64,000 bases of DNA from a bacterium. Lineage in GTDB: Bacteria > UBA8248. The stretch lies in contig OZ242260.1 in assembly GCA_965207065.1 (NCBI GenBank), positions 640,001 through 704,000 of the forward strand. Reading direction: 5' to 3'. The notes beneath the pieces are model-generated. The model was not told where the DNA came from. It made no database searches and was given only the letters and a program-made list of their open reading frames with translations. Below are positions 12,320 through 31,942 of the stretch, piece by piece. A program made the position numbers and the translations under genes. Position 1 is the stretch's first letter; every line of letters begins with the position of its first letter.

Positions 12320-12469
12320 GGAGTTACCAGGGATTGTGAAGATCGCCCTCCCCGGTTCCGGCCAACCTGTCGGTTGTCACCGGCATCCGCCGGCATGACG
12401 GACGCAAACGTTCGCTCCTCGCTCGCGTTTGACCCTTCATTCGATGATCGCCTCACCTGATTAGTCTCC
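12320..12469. ncRNA. candidate structured RNA (multi-hairpin junction) between divergent comA and sulfotransferase
   Basis: Long imperfect closing stem enclosing four short hairpins; no family recognised. Confidence 0.3.
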
Positions 12470-12579: not shown

Positions 12580-13593
12580 ATGCCGGATTTTTCAAGACCC
12601 GTATTCATCGTCAGCGCCCCCCGTTCAGGCTCGACCCTGTTCCGTCTCATTCTGGACGCCCACCCGAGGCTGGCGGTGCCCTCCCCCGCCTGGCTGTACG
12701 AAATGGTCTACCCCTACCTCTACAGCTATGGCGACCTCGCAAGCCCGGAAAATTTCATGGCGCTGGCCGAGGACATCTTCGAAAACCCCTTCATCAAGAA
12801 CATGAAGCTCGACATCACGCCGAAGGACCTCGTTTCCGCCTCCGAAGAACCGACCTTCCGCGGGCTTTACGATGCGCTTCACCGCCACTACGCCGAGCGC
12901 ACGGGCAAGGAGCGGTGGGGCGAGAAATCTCCCCGCAATTCTTTCTGGATGGAGGAGATCAAAGGCGATTTCCCGGATGCGCAATTCGTCCACATCGTGA
13001 GGGACGGGCGCGACATGGCGATCGACATCGCCGATTCGCCCGAGATGCTGCCCGAGAACATATATTCGGGCGCGCACGTCTGGAAGGATTTCACCGGCGC
13101 CGCGCACGCGTCGGGGAAACGCATGGGGGAATCGGATTACTACGTCATCCGCTATGAGGATTTGTGCGCAGAGCCTGAGGATGCACTGAAAAAACTGTGC
13201 GATTTCCTGAAGGAGGATTTCGATGCGCAGATGCTTGCCCACCACGAAACGGAATCCTCGAAAAGTTGGAGTTCTCTTCCCAACCATGTGAAGAGCGGGC
13301 GGCCCATCTCCACGCAATACTGCGAGATGTACAAGACGCGCCTGCCGACGGACGACGTATCCGCGCTCGAGGAAGTGATGGGGGATCTGCTCGTCGAGTT
13401 CGGCTACCCGGTGGGCGAGAGCGCAAAACCTATACCGGAAAAACTCGCGGCCCAGTTGATGGAAAGCGAGATGATATCCGCGCCCCGCGTGATCGCCTAC
13501 CGCAAATGGCATGCCGACAGGCGGCGGGAGCGGCTCTCGGAAGACGTCTGGAAGCTCGAAGACAGGAAATCTCTCCTGCGCTCGCTTTGCTGA
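12580..13593 (+). CDS. sulfotransferase family protein 1
   Basis: 5'-PSB loop SAPRSGSTL, WGEKSP, HIVRDGRD, RYEDL. Confidence 0.9.
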   Translation: MPDFSRPVFIVSAPRSGSTLFRLILDAHPRLAVPSPAWLYEMVYPYLYSYGDLASPENFMALAEDIFENPFIKNMKLDITPKDLVSASEEPTFRGLYDALHRHYAERTGKERWGEKSPRNSFWMEEIKGDFPDAQFVHIVRDGRDMAIDIADSPEMLPENIYSGAHVWKDFTGAAHASGKRMGESDYYVIRYEDLCAEPEDALKKLCDFLKEDFDAQMLAHHETESSKSWSSLPNHVKSGRPISTQYCEMYKTRLPTDDVSALEEVMGDLLVEFGYPVGESAKPIPEKLAAQLMESEMISAPRVIAYRKWHADRRRERLSEDVWKLEDRKSLLRSLC

Positions 13594-13828
13594 TGGCGGG
13601 GAGGCGGCTCACAGCGCATCGGGATTTTCGGGCCGAATAAGGCGCGCTTGTGCCGTCTTCGCGGATTCACTATGATGATCGCCATCCATATATTACTTGA
13701 GTCATGCGCCGTTTGAGGAAGTCCGGTTTATTCACTTTCTCTTTCGCTACGAAAAATCACGAATAAAAGGAGCCGAGCAAACGGAATCGAAACGAAATCT
13801 GGGGAAACCTGATTATGGAGGAAGCACG

Positions 13829-14806
13829 ATGTCCAAGATCATGAAATGCATCATTGCCTTTGGTGTTCTGGTATCAGTGGGGTTCGTCGATTCAGCGACG
13901 GCGGCCTATCCTGAACGCGCCATCAACTACATCGTCGCCTACAGGGTCGGGGGCGGCTCCGACAGGACGTCCCGCGCTTTCGTTCCCTTTCTCGAAAAGC
14001 ACCTGGGCAAAGGCGCCAAGATCGCCATCATCAACAAGCCAGGCGCCGGCGGCAACATCGGGTTCAACGCGATAGCGAACGCCAAGCCCGACGGCTACAC
14101 CATCGGCATGACGAACTTCCCCCAGGCCATCGTCGGCCCCATCATGGGGAAGGTGAAATACACCATCAAGGACTTCGACTTCCTGGGCAACGTGAACAGG
14201 GGGCCGACGACGTTCGCCGTGCTCAAGACGAGCAAGTACAAAACCCTGGCCGATCTCATGGCCGACGTCAAGAAGAACCCCGGCAAAATCTCGATCGGCA
14301 TGGCGGCGCTCAGCAGCGTCCACAGCATCGGGACCAGCAAGTTCTTGGTCAAGACGGGACTCAAAATGAACAAGGTGCCTTTCGGCGGCGGCGGACCCGC
14401 GCGCAACGCTCTTCTTGGCGGCCACGTTCCGGTGCTGGCGATTTCGATGTCCGCCATCGCGAAATTCAAGGACAAGGTCCGCATCCTCGCCCAGGCGGCG
14501 CCCGAGCGGGTGTCGATCGGCTCCTGGGTCCCGACGTTCAAGGAGCAGGGCGTGGACATCACCAATTTCGTCTTCCGTCCCGTGGCCGCTCCCAAGGGCG
14601 TGCCGGCGCCCATACTGGCGAAGCTGCGCGCCGCCTTCAAAAAGGCGATCGCAGATCCCGGATTCCTGAAAGTGGCGAAGAAACAAAGAATTGCGGTGGA
14701 ATACACCAGCGGCGAGGAGATGGGGAAGGTAGCGAACGCGTCTCACATGGCCCACGAACAACTCTGGAAGACGAACCCCTGGATGAAGAAGAAAAAGAAA
14801 AAATAA
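13829..14806 (+). CDS. tripartite tricarboxylate transporter substrate-binding protein (TctC/Bug)
   Basis: Signal peptide, YPERAI..GGGSD, NKPGAGG, KPDGYTI, VPFGGGG, VPTFKEQG; ATG 13829 follows GGAGG. Confidence 0.9.
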   Translation: MSKIMKCIIAFGVLVSVGFVDSATAAYPERAINYIVAYRVGGGSDRTSRAFVPFLEKHLGKGAKIAIINKPGAGGNIGFNAIANAKPDGYTIGMTNFPQAIVGPIMGKVKYTIKDFDFLGNVNRGPTTFAVLKTSKYKTLADLMADVKKNPGKISIGMAALSSVHSIGTSKFLVKTGLKMNKVPFGGGGPARNALLGGHVPVLAISMSAIAKFKDKVRILAQAAPERVSIGSWVPTFKEQGVDITNFVFRPVAAPKGVPAPILAKLRAAFKKAIADPGFLKVAKKQRIAVEYTSGEEMGKVANASHMAHEQLWKTNPWMKKKKKK

Positions 14807-14890
14807 GAAAGATCCGGGACTTCGGCTCACTGAGGACGCAGAAACGCAAACAACCCGAGGGCGCGCACCGTCGGTACGCCTTAAGGTCAG

Positions 14891-15682
14891 GTGGAGCGTA
14901 TGCCGCACATCAACGTATCGGGAGTCGACCTCCACTACGTCGACGAGGGCGCGGGAAAACCCGTATTTTTTCTTCACGGGAACGCGGGTTCGGGCCGCGT
15001 GTGGCGCAAAATCACGCCCGAATTCAGGAAACGCTACCGCGTGTTCGCGCACGATCGCCAGGGGTTCGGTGACTCTGAGAAAAAGGAAACCGGCGATTTC
15101 TCACCGCGCGGATTCGCCGGGGAACTGGCGCGCCTGATGGATGCCCTGGGCGTCGAGAAAGCACACGTATGCGGGCTGTCCATGGGCGGCATGATCGCCC
15201 AGTGCTTCGCTCTCGATTACCCCGAGCGGGTGGACGGGCTGGTGCTCGTGGGGACCATGCCCGACCGGACGGGGCGCAACGTTCCCGAGACGCTGGCCGA
15301 ACTCGAGCGAGACGGATGGCCTGCCGTCGCAGATCGTCTCATCCACCACTGGTTCCGGCCGGGCAGCGATGAGGCGGACATCGCCGAGGCGTATGAAATT
15401 GCGCTCCAGTCGCCGCAAAAATTTCGCGAACTCACCGTTACCGCGCTCGGGACGTTCGACATCAAGGCGGAACTCCCCGACATCAAGGCGCCGACGCTGA
15501 TTCTGAACGGCGAGGCGGACGTCACCAACGTGATGGGCCACGCGGAAATCATGAACGAGGGGATTCCGGGTTCGCGCCTCGTCAGGATTTCCGACTGCGG
15601 ACACCTGATCCCGATAGAAAGACCCGAGGCGTTCTGCCGGCACACGCTCGGGTTCCTGGCGGAGGTCGATGCCGCGCCTTAA
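14891..15682 (+). CDS. alpha/beta hydrolase (enol-lactone hydrolase-like)
   Basis: FLHG, DRQGFG, GLSMGG nucleophile elbow, GEAD, CGH. Confidence 0.85.
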   Translation: MERMPHINVSGVDLHYVDEGAGKPVFFLHGNAGSGRVWRKITPEFRKRYRVFAHDRQGFGDSEKKETGDFSPRGFAGELARLMDALGVEKAHVCGLSMGGMIAQCFALDYPERVDGLVLVGTMPDRTGRNVPETLAELERDGWPAVADRLIHHWFRPGSDEADIAEAYEIALQSPQKFRELTVTALGTFDIKAELPDIKAPTLILNGEADVTNVMGHAEIMNEGIPGSRLVRISDCGHLIPIERPEAFCRHTLGFLAEVDAAP

Positions 15683-15752
15683 CAGAAACGGCGTGTCCTG
15701 AAATTTCGCTTCGGGCAACTCGTCCCTGTCTATTCTCGCGGGGGAAGCGCAC

Positions 15753-16193
15753 GTGTTCGAAAACCATGACAGAGTCGCCTCCGTTATCTTCTTCGTCGTA
15801 ACGACTTTCCTCTATTTCCACGCCGGGAGTTTCCCGGAAGAAGCGGCCTTCTACCCGCGGATGGTCATCGGGTTGATGGTCATTCTCTCCGTACTCATGT
15901 TCATAAAGTCCTGGCTCAAATCAGGCCGTAGCAGGACCTTCGAGCCGTTCTTCATTCACCACAAGCGGTTTTTTCTGAGCGCCCTCCTGGCGCTGGGCTA
16001 CATTGCAGGCGTGCAGTATCTCGGCTACTACAGCGCCTCGCTGATTTTCATCCCCACAGCTGCCTGGGCGCTGGGCTACCGGAACAGGTTCGTCATGGCG
16101 GCGACCACGGTCTGTTATCTCCTGTTCATCTTCGTGGTATTCGACCAGCTTTTCGACCGACCGCTCACGCAGGAATTTTTCCTGCGCCACTAA
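15753..16193 (+). CDS. TctB family membrane protein
   Basis: Four hydrophobic segments, YP motif, directly upstream of TctA. Confidence 0.8.
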   Translation: MFENHDRVASVIFFVVTTFLYFHAGSFPEEAAFYPRMVIGLMVILSVLMFIKSWLKSGRSRTFEPFFIHHKRFFLSALLALGYIAGVQYLGYYSASLIFIPTAAWALGYRNRFVMAATTVCYLLFIFVVFDQLFDRPLTQEFFLRH

Positions 16194-16261
16194 AAGGGAG
16201 TGCGTAACATCGTGACTGGACACCGATTTGTTCCCAAACTCCAAGCCCCGGGAATGAAACC

Positions 16262-17788
16262 TTGATAGAGCCTTTCTACAATTCCCTTTGGGTCATCCTC
16301 GAGTGGCAGAACATTCTCGCCATGGTCGTGGGGGTGATCGGCGGCATCATTTTCGGCGCCATTCCGGGGCTGACGGCTACGATGGGCATCGCCCTCCTCA
16401 TCCCGCTTACCTTCGGCATGTCGCCGCTCATGGCGCTGGGGATGATGGCCGGCATCCACAACGGCGGATCATACGGCGGCGCCATTCCCGCCGTCCTGCT
16501 GCGCATTCCGGGCACGCCGGGCGCCATCGCCACCACGTTCGACGGCTACCCGATGGCCCAGCAGGGTCTCGCCGAACGGGCGCTCAAGATCGCCTGCGTC
16601 TCCTCGGCGGTGGGAGGCATGGTCAGCGCCGTTTCGCTGATGACGCTCTCCCCGCCGCTCGCGGATTTCGCCCTGGCCTTCGGCCCGCCTGAAATCTTCT
16701 GGATCAGCCTGTTCGGCCTCTCCAGCATCGCCGTGCTGCTGGGTTCGGACCCCATCAAGGGCCTCATGGCCTCTTGCGTCGGACTGCTGCTAGGCATGGT
16801 GGGCTTAGACCACGTGACCGGCTATGAGCGCTTCACCTTCGACACCCTGGAGCTTTCGGGTGGGCTGCAACTCATCGTCATCATGGTCGGAGTGTATGCG
16901 CTGCCGCCGGCGTTTCAGATGGCCGAGCGCGCCGTCATGACCGGCGTCAAATCCAAGGACCTCGAATTCGAGGGTAGATCCGACATGGCGAACTGGCCGT
17001 GGGCGCAAATTTTTCCCGCCTGGGTCCGTGCGAACGTCATCGGGATCATCATCGGGATTCTTCCAGGGGTCGGAGGCGTCGTCGGCGCATTTGTCGCCTA
17101 CAACGAAACCAAACGCTCATCGAAAGACCCGGAGAGCTTCGGGAAGGGAAACCCCGTGGGCGTCGCCGTGGCCGAATGCGCCAACAACGCGGACAACGCC
17201 GCCGCCATGATCCCCGCGCTCACGCTGGGGGTTCCCGGCAGCGGGCTGGCCGCCCTGATACTGGCGGGCCTGCTCATCCACGGACTCGAACCCGGCCCGC
17301 GCCTGTTCAAGGAAGCGCCCGACGTGGTCTACGGCTACATGTGGGCGATGCTGTTCACCTCCGCGTCCCTGTTCGTGTTCGGCGGCATCATCGCGACGAA
17401 GCTTTTCGCCAACATCCTTCGCCTGGCGCAGGTGCAACTGATGCCGCTCATCATCGCGCTGACGGTGGTGGGCATCTATTCGTTCGAGAACAGCATCTTC
17501 AACGTCTACCTGATGCTGGGGTTCGGCCTGTTCGGCTACTCGCTGGAGCGGCTGAAGTTCCCCATCGCGCCGCTTATTCTCGGCCTCATCCTGGGGCCAA
17601 AAGTCGAGTTCAACCTCAGGGTCGCGCTCCGGTTGTCGCAGGATGACTGGTCGATCCTGTGGACCCGGCCGATCAGCATCGTCCTCATCATATTGACCGC
17701 GCTCGTGCTCTTGTATCCGGTGATTTCCGCCCTCCTACGCCGGAACAAGGACAGGCCGGAAGAGGAGTTCGCCGTGGGGGAGGAATGA
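16262..17788 (+). CDS. TctA tripartite tricarboxylate transporter permease
   Basis: GAIPGL, YGGAIPAVLLRIPGTP, DGYPMA, ECANNA, LTLGVPG, PGP.LF. Confidence 0.92.
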   Translation: MIEPFYNSLWVILEWQNILAMVVGVIGGIIFGAIPGLTATMGIALLIPLTFGMSPLMALGMMAGIHNGGSYGGAIPAVLLRIPGTPGAIATTFDGYPMAQQGLAERALKIACVSSAVGGMVSAVSLMTLSPPLADFALAFGPPEIFWISLFGLSSIAVLLGSDPIKGLMASCVGLLLGMVGLDHVTGYERFTFDTLELSGGLQLIVIMVGVYALPPAFQMAERAVMTGVKSKDLEFEGRSDMANWPWAQIFPAWVRANVIGIIIGILPGVGGVVGAFVAYNETKRSSKDPESFGKGNPVGVAVAECANNADNAAAMIPALTLGVPGSGLAALILAGLLIHGLEPGPRLFKEAPDVVYGYMWAMLFTSASLFVFGGIIATKLFANILRLAQVQLMPLIIALTVVGIYSFENSIFNVYLMLGFGLFGYSLERLKFPIAPLILGLILGPKVEFNLRVALRLSQDDWSILWTRPISIVLIILTALVLLYPVISALLRRNKDRPEEEFAVGEE

Positions 17789-17792
17789 TCTG

Positions 17793-18143: not shown

Positions 18144-18158
18144 CTGAACGGCGCGGGA

Positions 18159-18187
18159 TTGACCCGTAAAATTTTTGTTTGTATAAG
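18159..18187 (+). promoter_or_regulatory. sigma70-like promoter for the TRAP operon
   Basis: TTGACC-17 nt-TATAAG in AT-rich context. Confidence 0.5.
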
Positions 18188-18461
18188 ATTTACATACTTT
18201 TCATTCAGAGCGAGGCGTTTTACCCGGGTTTCAGGAAGGCCGGATTCCCGATGACGAGGATTTCTTGGAGTCCCTGCGTTTCGCGTCGGAAAACCCGGGA
18301 TCGAAACGATGTCTCCCGAACCGCACCAGCGGCCAACCGTCCATGAGAATCTTATTGAGGAACCGCCAGATACGAAGTAATTGAAAATTTCAGAACCCGG
18401 GAAAAAGGAATTTTGGAGATTCCACTTCCGGTAAATACACAGACCACCAGAGGCGAAGCCG

Positions 18462-20384
18462 ATGCAGGATAGAGCCGAGGGAATAGGGTCTCAACACAGG
18501 AGCCTCTCCGGGCCTCTGGCGAAGATCATATTCGCCTTCGGGGCGCTGAGCACCGCCTATCACCTCTACGTTCTCATGGTCCAGCCGATCCAGCCCTGGA
18601 TATTGCGATCTTTTCACCTGACGGCAGCCGGAATCCTCGTTTTCGCGCTCATCCCCTGGAGAGCCGACAAGAAAAACGAAGGCCCCAACCTCCTCGATTA
18701 TTCCCTCGCCTTTCTCCTCGTCACGACGACCATCTTCCTCATCGTCGACTTCGACGAGATGCTCTACCGGGTCGGCGTCGACCCCAACCTATACGACGTC
18801 GTTTTCGCCACCATCACGTTCCTCGTCATCCTGGAGATGGGACGCCGCCTGCAGGGATACGTGCTACCGATCCTCGCCCTCGTATGCCTGGCCTATGCGC
18901 TATGGGGCGACTATCTCCCCGGTCTTTGGGGGCACAGGGGCTATCCATTCCCGCGCACCATCACGTATCTCTTCAGTCTGGAGGGAATTTTCGGACCTCC
19001 GCTGGCAGCCTCCTCCACCTTCATCATCCTCTTCATCCTCTTCGGCTCCGCTCTTCAGAGTTCGGGCGCGGGGCGGCTGTTCATCGACACGTCTTTGGCC
19101 ATCGCAGGCGGGGCGAGGGGCGGGCCGGCCAAGGTGGCGGTCTTCGCCAGCAGCCTTTTCGGCACCATGTCCGGCAGTTCGGTGACGAACGTGGTGACGA
19201 CCGGCACCTTCACCATCCCCCTGATGAAGAGCATCGGCTATCGACCCGCCTTCGCGGGCGCCGTCGAAACCGTCGCCTCCACCGGCGGGCAGCTCATGCC
19301 TCCCGTCATGGGAGTCACGGCGTTCGTGATGGCCGAGGTGACCGGCATCCCCTATCTCAAAATCGCCGCGGCGGGCCTCATACCGGCCATACTGTTCTAC
19401 GTGGCGGTCTATTTCATGATCGGCATCGAGGCGAAAAACCTCGGCTTAAGCGGTCTGCCCAGGAGTGAACTCCCCCGATTGTGGGACGTCTTAAAACAGA
19501 ACGGACACCTGCTTCTGCCCATATTCGTCCTCATCTACTTCCTGGTATACGTGCGGGTTTCGCCGATGAAATCCGCCTTTTACGCCATCGGCGCGGCGGT
19601 AATCGCCAGCTGGTTCCGGCAGGAAACGCGCATGGGAGCCAAAAGGGTGACCGAGGCGCTCTACCGGACAATGGAAGGCGCCATCCACGTCGCGACACCC
19701 AGCGCCCTGGCGGGCGTGGTCGTGGGCGTTTTGTCTCTCACGGGGCTGGGGCTCAAAGTCACGGATCTGCTGCTTTCCTACGTGGGCGAGAGCAAAATGC
19801 TGGGACTCCTCGCCGTCATGCTGGTTTCCATCGTCCTGGGGATGGGCGTACCTACGGTCGCCGCCTACCTCGTCGCCGCCGCCGCGGCAGGCCCCGCTCT
19901 CGTGAAACTGGGGTTTCCGCTCTTGAGCGCGCACATGTTCATTTTCTACTACGCTGTCCTGGCCACCATGACCCCGCCCGTCGCGGCTTCGGCGTTCGCC
20001 GCGGGCGCGCTCGCAGGCGCCCACCCCATGCAGGTCGGCTTCATGGCAGTGCGGCTCGGAATCGCCGCCTACATCGTCCCGTTCCTGTTCGTCTACGGGG
20101 ACTCTCTCCTGATGCAAGGTTCCTGGGGAGGGATCGGGATGGCGGTTGGAACGGCGCTTTTCGGCGTCTACGCCCTGGCGAGGTGCGTCATCGATCAGGG
20201 AATTTCCCTGTGGCGCAGGGCGGTTCTGGGAGTGGCGGCCCTGCTGCTGATCCTCACCGGCGGCCTGACGGACTTAATCGGCCTCGTCGTGCTTGGCCTG
20301 GGGCTGGGGGGCGACCTTCTCGCCTGGCTCCGGAGAATTCGTGAGAATAAGCAAAAAGAGGATGTGACCGAAGAAAGCTCATAA
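18462..20384 (+). CDS. TRAP transporter fused 4TM/12TM permease (TAXI type)
   Basis: HRGY, GGPAKVAV, NVVTTGTFTIP, ASTGGQLMPPVMG, GMGVPT, TPPVA. Confidence 0.92.
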   Translation: MQDRAEGIGSQHRSLSGPLAKIIFAFGALSTAYHLYVLMVQPIQPWILRSFHLTAAGILVFALIPWRADKKNEGPNLLDYSLAFLLVTTTIFLIVDFDEMLYRVGVDPNLYDVVFATITFLVILEMGRRLQGYVLPILALVCLAYALWGDYLPGLWGHRGYPFPRTITYLFSLEGIFGPPLAASSTFIILFILFGSALQSSGAGRLFIDTSLAIAGGARGGPAKVAVFASSLFGTMSGSSVTNVVTTGTFTIPLMKSIGYRPAFAGAVETVASTGGQLMPPVMGVTAFVMAEVTGIPYLKIAAAGLIPAILFYVAVYFMIGIEAKNLGLSGLPRSELPRLWDVLKQNGHLLLPIFVLIYFLVYVRVSPMKSAFYAIGAAVIASWFRQETRMGAKRVTEALYRTMEGAIHVATPSALAGVVVGVLSLTGLGLKVTDLLLSYVGESKMLGLLAVMLVSIVLGMGVPTVAAYLVAAAAAGPALVKLGFPLLSAHMFIFYYAVLATMTPPVAASAFAAGALAGAHPMQVGFMAVRLGIAAYIVPFLFVYGDSLLMQGSWGGIGMAVGTALFGVYALARCVIDQGISLWRRAVLGVAALLLILTGGLTDLIGLVVLGLGLGGDLLAWLRRIRENKQKEDVTEESS

Positions 20385-20441
20385 ACATGGCCTTTTACGT
20401 GAACATTGCAAGCTTCAAATCTCACTCAAAGGAGAAAGACC

Positions 20442-21449
20442 ATGAATTTCCCCGGAAAACAGATTAAACCCATGGTTTTTGCGATTATCGCCGCTTTCGC
20501 CCTCGGGGTCTGGCTGTCCGCTCCCGCCGAGGGGGCGAGAAAAGACTGGCCCAAACGCATCACCATCGGCGGCGGGCCGCTTCAGGGAACCATCCAGTTC
20601 CAGGCGCTGGGCTGGTCCAGCGTGCTGAACAAGGTTCTCAAGCTCAACTCCTCGGTGGAGTCCACCGCGGGCGCGACGGTGAACGCCAGGCTCATCAGCC
20701 AGGGCAGGCAGGACTTCGGCTTCGGCACGAGTTCGAGCATCTCCGACGCCGCCTTTTTCGGCAGAGGGTTCGCCAAGGGCAAACGCTACAAGAACCTCCG
20801 CATCATGTCGCCGGTGGACAGCTCCGGCGTGCAGTTCTGGACCCCGGCGAAAAGCCCCATTATGAAAGCCGAGGACATCCAAGGCAGACGCCTCAATATC
20901 AGCCGTCCGGGCAGCGGCGTGGATCGCTTCGGGCGCAACCTCATGAAGGTGGTCGGCCTCAAGCCCAGTCAGGTCACGAACGTGGGCCACGGCCAGGCGA
21001 ACCGCATGATGCAGGACGGCATACTGGACGTCGCCGCCACGATTGGCGCGCCGCCCCATCCCGCCGTCGCCTCCATTACCTCCCAGCTTCCTTTCCGCGT
21101 GTTCGGACTCGGACACGGGAAGTGGGCGGAGATGATGCTGGCGAAATACCCGTTCTACGTGAAGACCGCCATCGTAGGCGGCATGTACAAGGGGAATCCG
21201 AAGCCCGTCAAGACCATCGGACAAACGAACTGGTTGGGGTCGGGCGCGCACGTGCCGAACGACCTCGTGTATGAAGTGGTAAAGGCGACTTTCGCGAACA
21301 AGAAGGATCTGGTGCTCGCCCACAGGTCATGGGAATCCCTGGACATCAACAAGATGACGAAGGCGAACATACCCGTGCACCCGGGCGCGATTCGCTATTA
21401 CAAGGAGAAGGGCATCAAACTTCCCAAATCGGCCATGATGGCGAAATAA
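20442..21449 (+). CDS. TAXI family TRAP solute-binding protein
   Basis: Signal peptide, STAGATVN, PGSG, DLVYEVVKA, PVHPGAIRYYKEKG; ATG 20442 follows AGGAG. Confidence 0.9.
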   Translation: MNFPGKQIKPMVFAIIAAFALGVWLSAPAEGARKDWPKRITIGGGPLQGTIQFQALGWSSVLNKVLKLNSSVESTAGATVNARLISQGRQDFGFGTSSSISDAAFFGRGFAKGKRYKNLRIMSPVDSSGVQFWTPAKSPIMKAEDIQGRRLNISRPGSGVDRFGRNLMKVVGLKPSQVTNVGHGQANRMMQDGILDVAATIGAPPHPAVASITSQLPFRVFGLGHGKWAEMMLAKYPFYVKTAIVGGMYKGNPKPVKTIGQTNWLGSGAHVPNDLVYEVVKATFANKKDLVLAHRSWESLDINKMTKANIPVHPGAIRYYKEKGIKLPKSAMMAK

Positions 21450-21467
21450 AGAGCCGCTTTGGGTCGG

Positions 21468-21606
21468 GGTTGTTGAAAAAGCCCTCGAAGGGGGCATCGC
21501 TTATACCGGGAAGGCCGCTTCCGCATGCCCCCTTCGTCGGAAGCAACCTTCATGGGGTTTCCCCTTCAAGGGGGTTGCCTTTACCCTGTCAGAGGGGTCA
21601 ACAACC
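21468..21606. mobile_element. short degenerate MITE related to 17793-18143
   Basis: Starts GGTTGTTGAAAAAGCCC, ends TCAACAACC, shares GGGGTTGCCTTT near the right end; internal hairpins. Confidence 0.5.
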
Positions 21607-21758
21607 CCCGGTGCGGAGAGATTTTTAGGGCAATCGAGAGGCGGCATCTCATCTTTGATGAAGGTGCGGGCCGCGTGAGTGAAAACCTGATTCGATGCCG
21701 ACACCAAATCGGGCATCCACAGTAACGGACGCAGGACTGCGTCGGAAAGGCATGGAAC

Positions 21759-23954
21759 GTGCGTCTCCCGGATTGGACGATACAGAGCTGGACGGATGAA
21801 TTGGGCTTCGCCGAGGTGGCGCCCGCCGCCGACGCGGTGGCCGGTGAACTCGGCACATGGCGAATCCGCTACAAGGTGGGTCGCTGGGGGATAGACGAGC
21901 GCGGCTCCATCAAGGTCGCCTTCCGGCAGGTCAGCAACTGGGGCACGCCGCAATTCGATGACCCCGAAGGGGAGAACTACACCACGGTCAGGCTCCATTC
22001 CGAGTCCGAAGCGGTGCTCGCGCCCAGATTCGAGAGGAGAGGATACATCCGCCACTGGCGCCAGGCTTTGACGGTCGACGTTCTGGACGGGTGTCTCTGG
22101 GAGGGCGACAGCATCGATATCACGCTGGGGGATACAAGCGGGGGCGGGCCGGGCCTGCGCGCGCAGACCTTCAGCGAGAGTAATTTCGAGTTCAAGATGT
22201 TCATCGATCCCTTCGGCGCGGGAAACTTTCAGCCCCTGCCCGCTTCGCCGACGCTCCGCATCAAGGGAGGAGAAGCGCGCCGCCTGGTCGCGATCATGAC
22301 TTCAGAGGCCGCCGTCGGCGAAAAGGGATGGCTGCTCGTGAAGGCGGAAGATCGGCACGGCAACATCGCGGAAGGCTGCTCGGAGGAGATTTCTCTCGAA
22401 GCCGAGGGCACGAACCTGGGCCTTCCCGAGGGTCTGCGCTTTGGTGGAGACGGAATCGCGCTGCTGCGGACGGAAGAAATTTCTTTCGAGAGCGAGGGCG
22501 TGGCCCGCGTGCGCGTGAGGGACGGGGCGGGACGCGAGGCGCTCAGCAACCCTGTCGTGGTGCGCGAGCGGATAGAGGGCCCTCGTCTCCACTGGGGGGA
22601 TTTCCACGGGGGCCAGACCGCGGGCACGGTGGGCGTCAACAGTTTTGAGGAATTCTACCGCTTCGCGCGGGACGCGGGCGCGCTCGAGTTCACCACCCAC
22701 CAGGGAAACTGTTTCGAGGTGACGAACGAGGACATGGTTGAGTTGAAAGAGCTGACCCGCGCTTTCCACGAGCCGGGCCGCTTCGTGCCGTTCCTCGGTT
22801 ATGAATGGTCAGGCACGACGCCGATGGGCGGGGATCACGCCATATTCTTCTTCGATGAGGACAACGCTATCCACCGCTGCTCCCATTGGCTGCAAACCGA
22901 CCTCTCAGACGTCGATACCGATCGCGATCACATCACAAAGCTCCATGCGCAACTGCGCGGCGGGGGCGCGATGAGCCTCCCCCACGTGGGCGGGCGTCCG
23001 GCCAACCTGGAATTTCACGACCCCGAACTCGAACCCGTCATCGAGATCCACTCCAAGCACGGCATGTTCGAGTGGATGCTGGAAGAATCCATCGAGCGGA
23101 ACATGAAGGTGGGCTTCGTCGGCGGGAGCGACGATCACTACGGGCAGCCCGGCGCCTGCTACCCGAGTGAGGACGTGAACCATTTCGCCGCCCGCAACGG
23201 CCTGACGGCGCTTTACGCCGGTGATCTGACGCGGGAATCCATCTGGGCCGACATCAAGGCGCGCCGCTGCTACGCCACGAGCGGCGAGCGGATTTACCTG
23301 CGCTTCACCGTGAACGACCGCTGGATGGGCGAGGAGATCGATACGGCCGGAGCGCCCCGTATCTCGGTCGAAGCCGTGGGGACGGCCCCCATCGAGCGAA
23401 TCGAGTTGTATCGCGGCATGACGCGCATCCATACCGAGAAAATCGCACGGGACCAGGAGAGCAACCGGCTGCGCGTCCTGTTCTCGGGAGCGCGCGTGCG
23501 CGGACGGGGGCGCTCGACCTTGTGGGACGGGCGCCTGGACTTGAGGGAGGCGCGAATCCTCGAAGTCGAGCCCGTCGCCTTTGTAGATAACCGCGACCGC
23601 TTTCTCGAAAGCACGGAATCCGGGGTCTCGTGGAGCCTCTATACCGCGGGAGATTCCAGGGGGTTCAACCTCGAACTGGACGGCGAGGCGGGCGATATGA
23701 AGATCAGCACGGAACACGCGGCGCTTCAGGGGAGAATCCGGGATTTGCTCGAAGAAGCAGCCATGGTGGACGCCGGGAGGCTCGGCCAGCGGATGGAAGT
23801 CGGGAGAAGCCCGGCGACGGACGGCCCCTGGGAGGCCCGCTTCGAGCATACGGATCACGATGCTTCACCCGGCCTCAACACGTATTGGGTACGGGTGATT
23901 CAGGTCGATCAGGAAAAAGCCTGGAGCAGCCCCGTCTGGGTGAACCTTGCGTAA
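21759..23954 (+). CDS. DUF3604 / PHP-like metallohydrolase
   Basis: SNP..WGDFHG, FLGYEWS, PHVGG, EIHSKHG, GFVGGSDDH, RRCYATSG, AWSSPVW. Confidence 0.8.
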   Translation: MRLPDWTIQSWTDELGFAEVAPAADAVAGELGTWRIRYKVGRWGIDERGSIKVAFRQVSNWGTPQFDDPEGENYTTVRLHSESEAVLAPRFERRGYIRHWRQALTVDVLDGCLWEGDSIDITLGDTSGGGPGLRAQTFSESNFEFKMFIDPFGAGNFQPLPASPTLRIKGGEARRLVAIMTSEAAVGEKGWLLVKAEDRHGNIAEGCSEEISLEAEGTNLGLPEGLRFGGDGIALLRTEEISFESEGVARVRVRDGAGREALSNPVVVRERIEGPRLHWGDFHGGQTAGTVGVNSFEEFYRFARDAGALEFTTHQGNCFEVTNEDMVELKELTRAFHEPGRFVPFLGYEWSGTTPMGGDHAIFFFDEDNAIHRCSHWLQTDLSDVDTDRDHITKLHAQLRGGGAMSLPHVGGRPANLEFHDPELEPVIEIHSKHGMFEWMLEESIERNMKVGFVGGSDDHYGQPGACYPSEDVNHFAARNGLTALYAGDLTRESIWADIKARRCYATSGERIYLRFTVNDRWMGEEIDTAGAPRISVEAVGTAPIERIELYRGMTRIHTEKIARDQESNRLRVLFSGARVRGRGRSTLWDGRLDLREARILEVEPVAFVDNRDRFLESTESGVSWSLYTAGDSRGFNLELDGEAGDMKISTEHAALQGRIRDLLEEAAMVDAGRLGQRMEVGRSPATDGPWEARFEHTDHDASPGLNTYWVRVIQVDQEKAWSSPVWVNLA

Positions 23955-24043
23955 TCAGATGAGGCTCGCTTAAAGATATCGTCGACCCGAGAGGACCTGA
24001 TATCGGGCGGTTCATAACGCAGGAATCCGGTGAGGAGAACAAC

Positions 24044-24922
24044 ATGTGCACCATAGGCGCCGTTGCGACATCCGACGCAGAAGGAAACCCCGTCGCCTTC
24101 GCGCTCAAGAATTCGGACTACATGCAGGTCGGCCACTGGCACGGCTGCATATCCGGGGGAGCGGGCAATGACTTCATGGGCTTCAACACGGCCTCGCGGC
24201 CCGGCGTGAACTCCGGTATGAACGAAAAGGGTCTGGCCGTCATCCGCTCTTTTCTGGACTACCGGGGGCCTTTCGATGAAAAAGACGAACCCGTAAAAGA
24301 ACAAAAGGACTTCCCGCTCGACGTCGACCGCCGCAGCGCCATCGCCGCAGGTCTCCTGGAAATCTACGAGACCGTCGATGAGACGCTCCCCTACCTGCAC
24401 GACGTCATCCCCAAGCACACGGGCAAGGGCACCGGGCAGCGGGGCGGAAATTTCCTTCTCGCCGACGCGACGGGCAAGGTGGCCGTGCTCGAGCACTGCG
24501 AGGACAGAATCGAATCCCGCGTCTACCCGGCCGGCTGCGCGGCGCGCGGGAACAACGGCCGCCTTATTCTCCTGGAGGAACAAGCCCGCTTGCCCGGACA
24601 CGTTCGCGAGGACAGGGAGACACGCTGTGAATACATGCAGGACACCATGCAGCAGCTTCGCGAATCCATCCCACAGGGGATGAGCAAGGACGAGGCGCTC
24701 GATAGCCTTAAAAGAACGCTCGCCTGGAAGGGACCCGAAGGGGACGGGGGCGTGGGCTCGATCTGCGCGCTTAATCTGCGAGCGCCGGGAGCGCGGACGA
24801 ACAGCGCGCAGCCATGCTCGACCCGCACCGCCGTCATCTTCGACCTGATCGAAAAAAAGATGCACTTCACGCGGGGAAATCCCGACCAATTCCCCTGGGA
24901 GACGATGTGCTTTCCTGCATGA
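24044..24922 (+). CDS. Ntn-hydrolase (C45/choloylglycine hydrolase-like, N-terminal Cys)
   Basis: MCT start, KNSD, GMNEKGL, NFLLADA, GNP near C-terminus. Confidence 0.75.
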   Translation: MCTIGAVATSDAEGNPVAFALKNSDYMQVGHWHGCISGGAGNDFMGFNTASRPGVNSGMNEKGLAVIRSFLDYRGPFDEKDEPVKEQKDFPLDVDRRSAIAAGLLEIYETVDETLPYLHDVIPKHTGKGTGQRGGNFLLADATGKVAVLEHCEDRIESRVYPAGCAARGNNGRLILLEEQARLPGHVREDRETRCEYMQDTMQQLRESIPQGMSKDEALDSLKRTLAWKGPEGDGGVGSICALNLRAPGARTNSAQPCSTRTAVIFDLIEKKMHFTRGNPDQFPWETMCFPA

Positions 24923-25004
24923 AGGACGTTGAAATTCACCCGTTCAAACCATACCCCGGAAAAAGCGGCCAAAGCGCCGGGGCCGTCTTGAGAGGAAGCT
25001 TTTC

Positions 25005-26018
25005 ATGACCGAGAACACAGAACGCCCCGTATTCGTCGTCAGTTCACCCCGTTCAGGCTCTACGCTTCTGAGGTTGATCCTGGACGCCCACCCGCGCCTG
25101 GCGGTGCCCCCGCCCGCATGGCTGACGCATTTCATCTATCCCTATCTGTTCAGCTACGGTGATTTATCGAACGAGGCCAATCTCGCCGAACTGATCGAAG
25201 ACTCCCTCGCCACTCCGACGATCCGCGCATGGCCCATCTCGCCTACGCAAGAGGAAGTGCGCGATGAGATGAAAGAGCCGACTTTTGCGGAGATGTACGC
25301 CGCCCTTCACAGGCTGTATGCGAAATCCGAGGGTAAAGAACGCTGGGGAGAGAAAACGCCCCGCGTCTGCTTCTACATGGAAGACCTGAAATCCATGTAC
25401 CCGGGCGCGCAGTTCGTCCACATCATCAGGGACGGCCGGGACGTCGCCATCGACATCGCGGATTCCGCCCTGTGGCCGAACAACCTTTACGCGACCGCAG
25501 GCGTTTGGCGCGACTTCGTCCGGACCGTGAACGACTCGGCGAAAAAGCTGGGGCCTGAATCCTTTTGCGTCGTCAGTTATGAGGAGCTCTGCGCCGATCC
25601 GGAACCCGTTCTGATGAAGCTTTGTGAATTCCTGGGCGAGGATTTCTCGCCCGCCATGCTCGCCCACCAGGAAACCGACTCGACGAAGCAATGGGCAGAA
25701 ACCCCGATACACGCCAAAACGGCCCGCCCCATCACGACGGATTTCGTCGAGATGTACAAGCATCGCCTGCCCGAGGCGGACGTGGGGGTTATCGAGAGCC
25801 TGATCGGCGAGACATTGGGCGAATTCGGCTACGCGCTCACGGGAGCGCCGGACGACCTTTCCACCTGCGAGAAGCGCCAACTGATCGAGAACGACACCAT
25901 CACCAACATCGCGTCCATCGAGTACAAGCGCTGGCATGACGGAAGAAGGAAAGAGCGGCTCGATCGGGGTGTTTGGAAGCAGGAAGACCGGGATTCCCTC
26001 CTTTGGGGTTTCCATTAA
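25005..26018 (+). CDS. sulfotransferase family protein 2 (paralog of 12580-13593)
   Basis: SSPRSGSTL, WGEKTP, HIIRDGRD; colinear with protein 1 over its full length. Confidence 0.9.
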   Translation: MTENTERPVFVVSSPRSGSTLLRLILDAHPRLAVPPPAWLTHFIYPYLFSYGDLSNEANLAELIEDSLATPTIRAWPISPTQEEVRDEMKEPTFAEMYAALHRLYAKSEGKERWGEKTPRVCFYMEDLKSMYPGAQFVHIIRDGRDVAIDIADSALWPNNLYATAGVWRDFVRTVNDSAKKLGPESFCVVSYEELCADPEPVLMKLCEFLGEDFSPAMLAHQETDSTKQWAETPIHAKTARPITTDFVEMYKHRLPEADVGVIESLIGETLGEFGYALTGAPDDLSTCEKRQLIENDTITNIASIEYKRWHDGRRKERLDRGVWKQEDRDSLLWGFH

Positions 26019-26032
26019 AGGGAGCATCCGGC

Positions 26033-27196
26033 TTGTCCCCACAAAACGACCAGCAGGCGCATCCCTCACTCTTGGTCCCTGAGGAGGAAAGAGCGGCTTT
26101 AGAACGCGAGGCCGCCGATCTGCCCCACCTCTCTCTCAACGCCCGCCAGCTATGCGATCTCGAACTGCTGCTGAACGGCGGGTTCGCTCCCTTAAGTGGA
26201 TATCTATGCCGGAAAGACTACGACTGCGTTCTGGAATCCATGCGTCTTGAAAACGGGGCGTTGTGGCCCATCCCCATCGCCCTCGACGTTTCCGAGAAAG
26301 TGGCGAACGACATCGAAAAGAGTCCCCGGATCGCCCTGCGGGACCCACAAGGAACGCCGCTCGCCATATTGGACGCCGGAGACGTCTGGCGGGCCGATTT
26401 TGATCGAGAAGCGCAAGGCGTATTCGGCACCCTCGACCAGGCGCATCCAGGGGTTCGATATCTTTCCCGGGAAACAGGCCCCTTCTACTTTGGCGGCCGT
26501 CTGCGCGGCATCCGCCTGCCCCGGCACGCCGATTTCCCGGAATATCGCTGCACACCGGGAGAACTGCGCGCACAATTCCGTGCGATGGGATGGAAGCGGG
26601 TCGTCGCCTTCCAGACGCGCAACCCGCTGCACAGGGCGCACGTGGAGCTGACGACGCGGGCCGCTTCCGAGAACGGGGCGAAAATACTCCTGCATCCGGT
26701 AGCGGGAATGACGAAGCCGGGAGACGTCGATCATATCTGCCGGGTGCGCTGCTACGAACACGTTCTCGAGCATTATGCGCCTGATTCCGTCACCCTGGCG
26801 CTTCTGCCCCTGGCGATGCGGATGGCAGGCCCGAGAGAGGCTCTATGGCACGCGCTCATCCGGAAAAACTACGGCTGCACCCACTTCATCGTGGGCAGGG
26901 ATCATGCCGGCCCCGGCGTCGACGGCAGAGGCGAGCCGTTCTATGACCCGTACGCCGCCCAGGATCTGCTGAAAGCCCACCAGGCCGAATGCGGTATCGA
27001 AATGGTCCCGTTCCAGGAGATGGTCTATTCCCTCGATGAAGAAGGCTACCTGCCGATTGATGAGATTCCGGAGAACGGCCGCATCCTGCAGATATCCGGC
27101 ACGCGGTTGCGCGAGATGATGGCGAGTGGGGAGGAAATCCCCGAGTGGTTCACCTACCCGGAAGTCGCCGAGGAACTCAGGCGTTATTCTTCTTAA
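26033..27196 (+). CDS. sat: sulfate adenylyltransferase (ATP sulfurylase), no APS kinase domain
   Basis: DLELLLNGGFAPL, AFQTRNPLHRAH, MRMAGPREA, IVGRDHAG, ISGT, WFTYPEV; TTG 26033 follows GGAG. Confidence 0.92.
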   Translation: MSPQNDQQAHPSLLVPEEERAALEREAADLPHLSLNARQLCDLELLLNGGFAPLSGYLCRKDYDCVLESMRLENGALWPIPIALDVSEKVANDIEKSPRIALRDPQGTPLAILDAGDVWRADFDREAQGVFGTLDQAHPGVRYLSRETGPFYFGGRLRGIRLPRHADFPEYRCTPGELRAQFRAMGWKRVVAFQTRNPLHRAHVELTTRAASENGAKILLHPVAGMTKPGDVDHICRVRCYEHVLEHYAPDSVTLALLPLAMRMAGPREALWHALIRKNYGCTHFIVGRDHAGPGVDGRGEPFYDPYAAQDLLKAHQAECGIEMVPFQEMVYSLDEEGYLPIDEIPENGRILQISGTRLREMMASGEEIPEWFTYPEVAEELRRYSS

Positions 27197-27344
27197 AAAA
27201 AAATCTGACCCGCTTCTCTTGTCGATGAGACCCATCCGGTTTACGAAATAGCGAAGATAATTTCCTGTCCATAAAGCGGCTGGAAACTCGAGATATTTTC
27301 CAGGCAATTTGCAATAATTTTATCCAGCGAAAGCCCGCAAAGAT

Positions 27345-28139
27345 TCAGACGATCGAATGGAATTTGCCGCCGTCGACGTTGATCGTCGCTCCCGTGATGT
27401 AGCTCGCGTGAACCGACGCCAGAAACACCGCCAGCCCCGCCACTTCTTCGGGAGTGCCGAATCGTCCGAGGGGAATTTGCGATTCACGCGCCCGCCGCAT
27501 TTCGTCTGTCGACATCCCGCGTTCTTGGGCGAGTTGCTCCGTCATCCAGTCCTGCATGGGCGTATCGATCTGCCCCAGACAGATCGTGTTCACCAGGATA
27601 CCGTCTTTGACCAGGGACTGGGAGAGACCCTTGCTCAGTCCCAGGAGTGCTGCGTTCGTCGTGCTTCCTCCCAGAACGCCGGGCAGTGGTTCCTTGCCGG
27701 TTCCTCCGATCATGTTGATGATCCGTCCCCCGCCTTGCTTTTTCATGAAATGCGCCGCCTCGCGCGAAATCACGAGATAACCGACGATCTTCGTGTCCAC
27801 GGTCTTCCGGATCTGCGCCGGAGTCAGCGAGGAGAGCGTACTCGGCGCCGCGCGGCCGGCGTTGTTCACGAGGATATCCAGTCGCCCGAAAGTCTCGACC
27901 ACGCGAGACGCAAGCCCGGACGCTTGCTCTTCCACGCCGATGTCCGCACGCAGCGAGAGACCCGCGCCGCCTTGTTCCTCCACCGCCTTATGTGCGGCGT
28001 CCAGGCGGGCTTGATCCCGGCCGCAGAAGGCGACCCTGGCGCCCTGGTCCGCCAGGGCCAAAACAGTCGCCTTTCCGATCCCGCTCGTCCCTCCGGTGAC
28101 GAGAGCAACCTTTCCCTCGAGATCCATGTCCATTGCCAA
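27345..28139 (-). CDS. SDR family oxidoreductase (atypical active site)
   Basis: TGGTSGIG, DILVNNAG, PLGRFGTPEE, VDGG; lacks YxxxK. Confidence 0.85.
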   Translation of the reverse strand: MAMDMDLEGKVALVTGGTSGIGKATVLALADQGARVAFCGRDQARLDAAHKAVEEQGGAGLSLRADIGVEEQASGLASRVVETFGRLDILVNNAGRAAPSTLSSLTPAQIRKTVDTKIVGYLVISREAAHFMKKQGGGRIINMIGGTGKEPLPGVLGGSTTNAALLGLSKGLSQSLVKDGILVNTICLGQIDTPMQDWMTEQLAQERGMSTDEMRRARESQIPLGRFGTPEEVAGLAVFLASVHASYITGATINVDGGKFHSIV

Positions 28140-28290
28140 TCCTCATCGCTGGTGAATGAACTATCGCTTTTCCCGATGTAAGATGCAGGGCGATTCTCTA
28201 TGAAAGCGCCCGGGTCGACATGCGGCGTCGGCCCCCTGGGGTGCGCTCCCAAGGGCGGGAGTCGATGCGGCGAAGAGCGCACAAAGCCCT

Positions 28291-29397
28291 CTATTCCAGA
28301 ACGATTTTCCCCATGCCGTCCTTCCGTGTGATCCGGGTGGCGAACTCTGCCGAGAGCCTCTCCACGAGGTCGATCACCCCTTCGGCTCTCTCCCCTTCGA
28401 CCAAGCCGGAATTACCTGCATCGTCAATCGAAGCGGGAACGAAGCCCAATTCAACTACCCCGTCCTTTTCGACCGTGAGTTCAAAGAGGGCCGTCTGCCT
28501 CGGCATGCGCTTTTTGATGAGTTCGGGCGTCATCACGCCGCCGTAGGAGAGTTCGGGGCTTCCGACATCGGGCAGTTCGTGGAAGATGAAATTCCCGATT
28601 CCGTAGAGGATCGGCTTTCCCTTGTAGATTTCGACCGCCTGAAGCGTGTGGGAGTGATGCCCGAGAACCACATCCGCGCCCGCGTCCACGAGCGCGCGGC
28701 CGACGCACGTCTGGTATTCCGCCAGATCGTAGCGGCTCGCCAGCCCCCAATGACCGGCGATGATCACGACCTCCGCCTCTTGTTTCGCCGCCGCCACGAC
28801 TTTCTGCATGCGCGTGATATCGGCCTGGAGCGGAAAAGTCTTCACCGGAGGGGGCGTGCCGGGTTGTTCCTGGGTTCTCGGGCTCGGCTCCAGGACGAAA
28901 GCGGAAAAGACATGGATGGGCGCGAGGCCCGGGCGCTCCTCACCAGCAGCGCAGCCGAGCGGAAGGGTGGAGGCATAACCCAAAAAAGCCACGCGGACCC
29001 CGGCCTTCTCGATGATGGCCGGCGCGTACGCTTCCTCCAGATTCCGGCCCGCTCCCACGCGCCGGACCCCCTTCTCGTCGAGAAGGGACAGGGTGTCGAA
29101 AAGCGCATCGTAGCCGTAGTCGAGCATGTGGTTGTTCGCGAGGGTGACGACGTCCACCCCCATTTCGTCCAACTCGTCGATCAGGGAAGGGTGGGAGCGC
29201 AGAAACGTGTATTTTTCGGCCGGATAGCCCCTTTCGGAATAAGGGCTCTCCAGGTTGATGAACGTCATGTCGGCCCTTGCCATACGTTCGAACAGGGCGC
29301 GCACGGGTTCCGCCCCCGGCTCTCCCGGACGAGGAAGCTTCTTGCCGATGAACACGTCCCCGGCCAACGCGATGGAAACCGTCCCTTCGTTGGACAT
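28291..29397 (-). CDS. CapA family (metallophosphoesterase-fold) protein
   Basis: AGD, NLES, LANNHMLDYG, HWG, GHHSH, YGIGNFIF. Confidence 0.88.
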   Translation of the reverse strand: MSNEGTVSIALAGDVFIGKKLPRPGEPGAEPVRALFERMARADMTFINLESPYSERGYPAEKYTFLRSHPSLIDELDEMGVDVVTLANNHMLDYGYDALFDTLSLLDEKGVRRVGAGRNLEEAYAPAIIEKAGVRVAFLGYASTLPLGCAAGEERPGLAPIHVFSAFVLEPSPRTQEQPGTPPPVKTFPLQADITRMQKVVAAAKQEAEVVIIAGHWGLASRYDLAEYQTCVGRALVDAGADVVLGHHSHTLQAVEIYKGKPILYGIGNFIFHELPDVGSPELSYGGVMTPELIKKRMPRQTALFELTVEKDGVVELGFVPASIDDAGNSGLVEGERAEGVIDLVERLSAEFATRITRKDGMGKIVLE

Positions 29398-29403
29398 TCC
29401 GTA

Positions 29404-31892: not shown

Positions 31893-31942
31893 TTCTTCTC
31901 CGTGTTCATCCGTTGTTTGGAGGAATGAATGGAATCAAAAGC

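Follow-up and report, generated by a model that had tools for sequence, protein, structure and literature searches.

The window analysed here is a stretch of 64,000 nucleotides (G000:C1:640001-704000) from the genome of a bacterium of the UBA8248 lineage (G000), which is assembled as a single contig of 4,476,866 bases (96% complete, 4.95% contamination). It carries two genes for Sulfotransfer_3 proteins, designated ST1 and ST2, and one for an ATP sulfurylase (Sat). ST2 (25005..26018, + strand; PF13469, E-value 1.1e-33) encodes a predicted cytoplasmic protein of 337 aa with a sulfotransferase fold, and its paralog ST1 (12580..13593, +; PF13469, 8.8e-30) has the same motif and shares 51% identity with it. 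The stop codon of ST2 ends at 26018, 14 nt before the TTG start codon of Sat (26033..27196, +; 387 aa), which is preceded by AAAGGGA. Upstream of ST2 lie the genes for an Ntn-hydrolase-like protein (24044..24922, +; 292 aa; C45/CBAH/AAT-like), a DUF3604/CehA-McbA-like metallohydrolase (21759..23954, +; 731 aa) and a TAXI-type TRAP importer (18462..21449, +), so that the sulfotransferase does follow an importer and two hydrolases, as a preliminary description of this DNA had stated. With intergenic gaps of 89, 82 and 14 nt, the metallohydrolase, Ntn-hydrolase, ST2 and Sat genes have the look of a single operon; a simple promoter and terminator scan of positions 17500-28500 yielded nothing above the shuffled expectation.

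The translation of ST2 includes HIIRDGRDVAIDIADS and that of ST1 includes HIVRDGRDMAIDIADS in the 3'-phosphate-binding (3'-PB) region. Both read R-x7-D where sulfotransferases that depend on 3'-phosphoadenosine 5'-phosphosulfate (PAPS) have R-x7-S. The motif residues are R142 (codon 25428-25430) and D150 (25452-25454) in ST2, and R141 and D149 (13024-13026) in ST1. The preliminary description had reported this Asp motif, R-DGRD(M/V)AI-D, with the same two Asp codons, and on re-translation all of its coordinates and residues proved correct. In phmmer alignments to four solved sulfotransferases (OLS-ST, 4gox; CurM-ST, 4gbm; and two TPSTs), free of gaps between the Arg and the Ser/Asp, D150 falls on the motif Ser, which bears out the earlier placement of an Asp at this site. 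R16, S17, G18, T20 and K117 of ST2, whose motif for binding the 5'-phosphosulfate (5'-PSB) is PRSGST, fall on the PRSGTT and NKDP segments in the TPSTs. P37 (codon 25113-25115) fills the position of the catalytic base, and S154 has the codon 25464-25466.

An AlphaFold2 model of ST2, built from a 30-sequence alignment (pLDDT, 87.3), places D150 within a strand (136-141) and helix (144-152) arrangement. In TPST1, the 3'-PB motif is carried by the strand-helix element beta6/alpha7 (PMC5562738). It is therefore supported, as far as alignment and a predicted model can tell, that D150 stands in the place of the 3'-PB Ser, within the kind of strand-helix element where that motif is expected. The model superimposes on TPST1/2 with Z-scores of 23.7-24.0 (root-mean-square deviation 3.5-4.3 Å over 242-250 residues), on OLS-ST with 23.1 and on CurM-ST with 22.4, and Foldseek gave E-values of about 1e-12 against solved sulfotransferases. 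The PF13469 matches, Foldseek and structural alignment agree in assigning the protein to the sulfotransferase alpha/beta fold, while neither ST1 nor ST2 matched the ASST beta-propeller families (PF05935/PF14269) at E ≤ 0.001. TPST1/2, CurM-ST and OLS-ST resemble ST2 in fold (Z 22.4-24.0 over residues 1-281), in the 5'-PSB loop, in the catalytic Arg and Lys, and in the 3'-PB Arg. They are PAPS-dependent enzymes with a Ser in the 3'-PB motif, whereas ST2 and its closest relatives have Asp or Glu there.

Among ST1, ST2 and the best 120 of 1112 relatives found by a word-indexed search, Asp was present at the motif position in 122 of 122 proteins. An exhaustive search returned 22,334 relatives at E ≤ 0.001, the best 150 of which were listed. 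A 151-row alignment was made up of ST1, ST2, 30 proteins translated from loci in genomes, 12 representatives that were picked individually, and 107 others with a single domain and a length of 290-400 aa; proteins that were shorter or had several domains were excluded. The motif position of this alignment is Ser in 105 rows, Asp in 28, Glu in 15, Ala in two and Gly in one. With the motif columns removed, all 43 Asp/Glu rows fell on one side of a single branch of the FastTree phylogeny (SH-like support, 98). A single origin is the simplest reading of the Asp/Glu variant in this unrooted tree. No clade member fused to Sat or to APS (adenosine 5'-phosphosulfate) kinase appeared among 61 longer proteins, a weak negative since these were mostly tandem, glycosyltransferase or polyketide synthase (PKS) fusions of Ser-type enzymes.

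The clade differs from its Ser-type relatives at several further positions. At position 37, the catalytic base, Pro, Val or Ala is found in 49 of 49 Asp/Glu loci, while Glu occupies this position in 22 of 27 Ser-type loci and in 88% of the 105 Ser-type rows; the corresponding Glu is E99 in TPST2 and E100 in TPST1 (PMC5562738). Position 39 is Trp in 95% of the Asp/Glu clade and mostly His in the Ser type, position 154 is Ser in 91% and 9%, respectively, and position 251 is Tyr in the former and Trp in the latter. Residues 295-337 form a conserved C-terminal extension that is absent from the Ser type and lies outside every match to a solved structure (residues 1-281). R142 of the 3'-PB motif is present in 100% of both groups, and the 5'-PSB loop, R16, S17, G18, T20 and K117 show little or no variation across the clade and its Ser-type relatives. 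Because R16, K117 and the 5'-PSB loop are conserved, sulfuryl transfer has probably been retained. The clade lacks the catalytic-base Glu, a change that the preliminary description had overlooked, so the acceptor-side chemistry is likely to differ as well. On these residues, the clade proteins look like active sulfuryl-transfer enzymes with an altered nucleotide 3' pocket and acceptor site. The Asp/Glu clade, with Asp or Glu at the 3'-PB Ser position in 49 of 49 loci, appears from the alignments as a well-supported and widespread branch of Sulfotransfer_3 without the residue that grips the 3'-phosphate. Neither this clade nor a natural APS-specialised sulfotransferase was described in the literature searched, which did not cover subscription journals, and only two papers in the same literature name DUF3604.

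The Sat of the window consists of PUA_2 and ATP-sulfurylase domains only (PF14306, 1.6e-45; PF01747, 1.9e-86) and scores 445.7 bits against TIGR00339 (cut-off, 322.95). Its homologues begin with MSPQNDQQ and are 387-391 aa long, in agreement with the TTG start. The sequence contains QTRNPLHRAH and GRDHAG, which we take to be active-site motifs. Its top NCBIfam model is the bifunctional Sat/APS-kinase, but the match covers model positions 8-388 of 572 only; the protein ends in ...EELRRYSS, and the C-terminal APS-kinase domain of bifunctional Sat-CysC is absent. The likeness to the N-domain of Sat-CysC (PAPS synthase type) noted earlier thus holds, the Sat half of such fusions being 57-63% identical to the window Sat, and so does the 14-nt spacing between ST2 and a kinase-less sat gene. 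The closest 18 of the listed relatives are stand-alone proteins of 320-391 aa (78-97% identity), while 99 of the next 102 (45-63% identity) carry an APS-kinase domain. A metagenome scan retrieved only fused forms with 45-61% identity to Sat and no further ST2-Sat loci; the kinase lies directly downstream in 76 of these 80 loci, the other four ending too early to judge, and all three sulfotransferases present in them are Ser-type. A complex prediction for ST2 and Sat gave a score of 0.00 in two runs made without controls, and was not used as evidence in either direction.

The preliminary description had noted that no cysC lies in the window. This holds for the entire genome: no match to APS kinase (PF01583) was found in the window or elsewhere in G000 after scoring of 45 candidates, with positive controls in 11 of 14 genomes. 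The whole-genome searches likewise returned no PAPS_reduct match (PF01507, which covers CysH and CysD; controls positive in 14 of 14 genomes) and no AprA above the cut-off. G000 contains one Sat, two Sulfotransfer_3 genes (ST1 and ST2 only), two NIR_SIR reductase loci (C1:2017404-2018513 and C1:4125673-4126977) and three classical sulfatases. Judged by gene content, G000 cannot make PAPS by any known route. Since APS kinase, CysH/CysD and AprA are all missing, Sat has no known partner for APS besides the adjacent sulfotransferase.

The inheritance of the genes was followed in 44 genomes of the order (including G000), 23 of which belong to the genus; four genomes are duplicates of others (G098 of G001, G102 of G002, G086 of G008, and G093 of G010). 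The Ntn-hydrolase, ST2 and kinase-less Sat genes are all present in 12 of the 23 genus genomes, and none of the three is present in nine. They are adjacent in 11 of the 12, the Ntn-hydrolase gene immediately preceding ST2, and in G093 they are split by short contigs. G091 (79% complete) has an ST1-like gene only. G100 has only a fused Sat-CysC (a 590-aa frame) without ST2, and is the sole genus member with such a fusion; at about 8 Mb in 70 contigs, this assembly has double the size typical of genus members and may be a mixed bin. In G111, a single-contig genome of a neighbouring genus, the Ntn-hydrolase and sulfotransferase genes are adjacent and a kinase-less Sat is encoded elsewhere, with no match to APS kinase or PF01507. 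This distribution supports the inheritance of ST2 and Sat as a unit within the genus.

Nine of the 12 genomes with the module lack APS kinase (PF01583); it is encoded in G089 and G097, and in G093 as a broken fragment. In G089, a PKS cluster (L171:958-6291 and from 8979 onward) carries CysD, CysNC (the CysC portion of which is the kinase) and a Ser-type sulfotransferase that reads RDGRDTAIS and keeps the Glu, while G097 has a complete cysC (211 aa) next to what remains of a cysD and to a PKS of that kind (L170:7612-8058 and from 12088 onward). These clusters look like a sulfated or sulfate-activated polyketide pathway with a PAPS supply of its own, introduced into a lineage that is otherwise without one. 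The arrangements in G089 and G097 indicate that, within the genus, the kinase travels with the Ser-type enzyme and the Asp type with kinase-less Sat. The cysC fragment of G010/G093 comprises a broken C-terminal half situated where a contig ends; it is an ortholog of the complete gene in G097, and the genes around it share no more than about 25% identity with any in G000. Elsewhere in the order, genuine CysH/CysD pairs are confined to three genera, in addition to the CysD of G089, so the family appears to be mostly without assimilatory sulfate reduction. Most of its genomes, lacking CysH/CysD and APS kinase, are probably unable to assimilate sulfate by the standard route.

For the wider clade, 80 genome loci were compared, 48 of the Asp/Glu type and 32 others, two of which were later typed as Asp/Glu. 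A kinase-less Sat near the sulfotransferase was found in 5 of the 48 Asp/Glu loci, a TauE/SafE-type exporter in nine, a DASS transporter in five, an AsfA/AprA-like flavoprotein in five or six (one at only 26% identity), a HEAT-repeat protein in five and a DUF3604 relative in five; each of these was present in 0 of the 32 other loci. The Sat genes that adjoin Asp/Glu-type genes (the window, L003, L004, L018, L023 and L025) are all kinase-less. Among Ser-type enzymes, three sulfotransferases lie beside Sat-CysC fusions and one beside CysD-CysNC (G089). Asp variants were not found routinely beside cysC, which was present in 0 of 48 Asp/Glu loci and in 1 of 32 others. Pfam scans also identified sulfonate/taurine-type ABC importers and LysR, GntR and sigma-54 regulators in the Asp/Glu loci. 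A locus of Methylomonas methanica NCIMB 11130 (L016:3559-14772) compactly combines, in this order, genes for ASST, a sulfatase, GntR, a flavoprotein (PRK08275, 1086 bits), a Glu-type sulfotransferase, a sulfonate-type ABC importer and a HEAT protein, and the flavoprotein-HEAT pair recurs in L015, L027, L029 and L037; the flavoprotein is presumably similar to AsfA of Pseudomonas putida. In Desulfovibrio (L034 from D. piger ATCC 29098, L031, L035, L046, L054 and L076), an Asp-type member directly follows a TauE/SafE-type gene, and genes for a DASS/CitMHS transporter and a sigma-54 activator of the PrpR type come next in L031 and L040. The genome of the isolate D. piger ATCC 29098 (G031) has only a P-loop-level match to the APS-kinase model (4e-4). 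By their gene content, the Asp/Glu loci are sulfur-scavenging or dissimilatory contexts, and the Ser-type relatives are found instead in glycosyltransferase, PKS and tandem-repeat contexts.

Taken with the conserved sulfuryl-transfer residues, these neighbourhoods point to ST2 and ST1 as APS/AMP-linked sulfuryl transferases that are coupled to Sat and run in the catabolic direction, a reading to which we assign a rough probability of 0.4. The use of APS/AMP as the cofactor, with both directions taken together, is somewhat more probable than its contrary. The module, which is fixed in this genus, consists of the Ntn-type hydrolase, ST2 and kinase-less Sat behind the DUF3604 metallohydrolase and the TAXI-TRAP importer. 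An imported organic anion would be trimmed by the hydrolases, ST2 would pass the sulfuryl group (O-, N- or S-linked) of the trimmed anion to AMP, giving APS, and Sat would convert APS and pyrophosphate (PPi) into ATP and sulfate. We infer the direction of flux and the yield of ATP from the context: the catabolic, ATP-yielding direction is favoured because the neighbours of ST2 are importers and hydrolases and because the sister clade is situated in organosulfur-utilisation loci. The last step has a precedent in sulfur oxidisers, where Sat runs in reverse together with AprBA and turns APS and PPi into ATP and sulfate (PMC3779200). There, APS is formed from sulfite and AMP by APS reductase, while G000 has no AprA and the proposed source of APS is a protein of the sulfotransferase fold. 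ASST (PF05935), a gene for which adjoins the Glu-type member in the Methylomonas locus, also moves sulfuryl groups without PAPS, but its fold is unrelated to that of ST1/ST2 and it uses no nucleotide.

The use of APS by enzymes of this fold has been demonstrated for Stf0, NST, C4ST, AST IV and EST, with kcat/Km values 2-5 fold below those for PAPS, and enzymes that work better with APS were obtained when the 3'-PB Arg and Ser were subjected to saturation mutagenesis (Xu et al. 2023, PMC10638397). S140E and S140I of AST IV were among the positive single changes, and since S140E raises activity with APS, there is direct support for the notion of APS being favoured by a carboxylate in place of the Ser (PMC10638397). 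Therefore, the use of APS through a change of the 3'-PB Ser is not wholly new as an idea. The engineered enzymes are like ST2 in that a 3'-PB change, including Ser to Glu, is tied to the use of APS, and in being coupled to ATP sulfurylase alone, without APS kinase, as ST2 would be to Sat. They are laboratory mutants of PAPS enzymes, often without the motif Arg (PMC10638397), whereas the change in the ST2 clade is natural, ancient and clade-wide, the Arg being kept and the catalytic base lost. The ST2 clade further differs from TPST, CurM-ST and OLS-ST in the replacement of the base Glu (E99/E100 in the TPSTs; PMC5562738) by Pro, Val or Ala, in the additional conserved C-terminal segment, and in a gene context that is catabolic or scavenging and not biosynthetic. 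The proposal of the preliminary description that these enzymes use APS/AMP is thus favoured by the D150 site, the lack of a PAPS route, the ST2-Sat unit, the S140E precedent (PMC10638397) and the catabolic context, while its prediction of a correlation with the absence of cysC failed.

Several observations weigh against this reading. Genomes with cysC (E ≤ 1e-10) make up 35 of 49 of the Asp/Glu type and 23 of 27 of the Ser type (Fisher p = 0.26), in a tally based mostly on metagenome-assembled genomes of unknown completeness; without the unpublished G070 and G076, both cysC-positive, the Ser-type figure is 21 of 25. A general association of the Asp/Glu variant with cysC-free genomes was therefore rejected, the predicted link failing beyond the lineage of the window. 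The presence of cysC does not contradict the use of APS, because cysC has other clients, but the predicted correlation is nonetheless gone. Adjacency of sulfotransferase and Sat is seen in two lineages only, and six kinase-less Sat loci set against four Ser-type ones are few independent events. An APS kinase is encoded in two of the module-bearing genomes (G089 and G097), albeit in a PKS cluster away from ST2 and Sat. When the Sat tree is rooted on two distant Sats without kinase, the clade of stand-alone proteins (14 rows) comes out as the sister group of the fused forms instead of within them, which does not show that Sat lost a kinase domain. The thermodynamics of APS formation from alkyl sulfates are uncertain. 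From the side of the enzyme, the motif Arg R142 is invariant, whereas engineering in favour of APS often removed the Arg (PMC10638397); the conserved S154 (91% of the clade) could in principle reach a shifted 3'-phosphate; the Asp substitution is not strictly required, because canonical enzymes already accept APS; and, having lost the catalytic base, the enzyme may carry out another reaction entirely.

The alternative that fares best keeps APS as the cofactor and reverses the direction: Sat would make APS from sulfate, and ST2 would use it to sulfate an imported or hydrolase-released compound in biosynthesis, detoxification or the formation of a compatible solute. A Sat without kinase or reductase suits either direction, the residues for sulfuryl transfer are conserved, and canonical enzymes accept APS as a donor (PMC10638397). 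However, the neighbours of ST2 are importers and hydrolases rather than biosynthetic genes, the sister-clade loci have a scavenging or catabolic character, with genes for sulfatase, ASST, TauE and ABC importers of the sulfonate type, and the catalytic base that would activate a hydroxyl acceptor is absent. Formation of APS is, moreover, strongly unfavourable without a pulling step, and this direction is considered unlikely.

Less likely still, ST1 and ST2 may be ordinary PAPS-dependent sulfotransferases in which Asp/Glu is tolerated or related to the substrate, with PAPS supplied by an unrecognised kinase or from outside. The cysC gene in 35 of the 49 variant-bearing genomes, the unchanged R142 and remaining RDGRD motif, and the conservation of S154 one helical turn on would all be in keeping with this. 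Yet PF01583 finds no match in G000 or in eight further genus genomes with the module, cysC occurs in none of the 48 Asp/Glu loci and every adjacent Sat is kinase-less, while Ser-type enzymes adjoin kinase genes even within the same genus; a carboxylate next to a phosphate would also be unfavourable.

In 49 of 49 Asp/Glu loci, neither the Glu of the catalytic base nor the Ser of the 3'-PB motif is kept; together with the changes of H39 to Trp and W251 to Tyr and the conserved extension (295-337) without a solved match, this suggests a further possibility, namely that the clade no longer performs nucleotide-dependent sulfuryl transfer to hydroxyls and is instead another enzyme, acting for example on a different anionic group, or a binding protein built on the sulfotransferase fold. 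The invariant 5'-PSB loop, R16 and K117 argue otherwise, and the linkage to Sat points to an adenylyl-sulfate nucleotide, which makes this quite improbable. An APS:thiol sulfotransferase replacing APS reductase, so that APS from Sat would pass by way of a thiol to sulfite and on to the sulfite reductase of the genome, would account for Sat and NIR_SIR-type reductases without CysH/CysD in G000, and a thiolate acceptor would presumably need no catalytic base, but it is very improbable given that the module is missing from 9 of 23 genus genomes, that CysH is missing from most of the family anyway, that most other genomes with the clade have cysC, and that no clade-specific Cys was found, C207 being common to the Ser type.

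If the APS/AMP-linked, catabolic reading of ST2 were extended to its relatives, the Asp/Glu clade would represent a widespread AMP-dependent sulfuryl salvage, in which organosulfates, sulfamates or thiosulfonates are converted to APS; such a generalisation is speculative and rather doubtful at present. The APS formed would be directed through Sat to ATP in the UBA8248 lineage, to respiration in sulfate reducers such as Desulfovibrio piger, and, in bacteria starved of sulfur, to assimilation by way of APS reductase. For enzymes of the sulfotransferase fold, PAPS is regarded as the universal donor of sulfuryl groups, and a natural clade tuned to APS/AMP would, if real, alter the reading of "sulfotransferase" annotations in thousands of genomes. 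It might likewise explain orphan ATP sulfurylases in organisms unable to reduce or phosphorylate APS, and provide ready catalysts for the PAPS-free sulfation now sought by engineering. Should the reaction proceed from organosulfate to APS, the pathway would be new, and desulfation would conserve the energy of the sulfate-ester bond as ATP or spare the ATP spent on sulfate activation, which would be relevant to gut sulfate reducers and to microbes growing on sulfated organic matter. Sulfuryl salvage would then stand beside the sulfatases as a nucleotide-conserving alternative, and the sulfur cycle would have a branch that has gone unrecognised.

The TAXI-TRAP importer upstream of the module comprises a fused DctM-type permease (18462-20384, +) and an NMT1_3 binding protein (20406-21449, +), and its gene order is also kept in L003-L005. 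ST1 is followed by genes for a TctC receptor (13697-14806, +), an alpha/beta hydrolase (14891-15682, +), TctB (15753-16193, +) and TctA (16262-17788, +); the order of this downstream set (13697..17788) is kept in L003/L004. An open reading frame upstream of ST1 (11801-12460, +) was considered as a relative of the Ntn-hydrolase and rejected, the two being unrelated, and domain searches gave no family match for it. Its counterparts in L010 (3083-3616) and L012 (9143-9670) are 69-72% identical, and the ST1 proteins encoded there are 92% identical to that of the window. Farther upstream, a gene at 9774-10736 (+) encodes a 320-aa protein with a 2-thiouracil desulfurase domain and DUF1722. The next gene past Sat is a convergent SDR gene (27345-28139). 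It is followed on the - strand by a group of genes at 28291-33328, which opens with tandem PGA_cap (CapA-like) paralogs (28291-29397 and 29404-30495) and continues with genes for an adenylosuccinate-lyase-family protein (30492-31892) and an amidohydrolase (31943-33328). Overlapping gene ends suggest that these four genes may form one operon.

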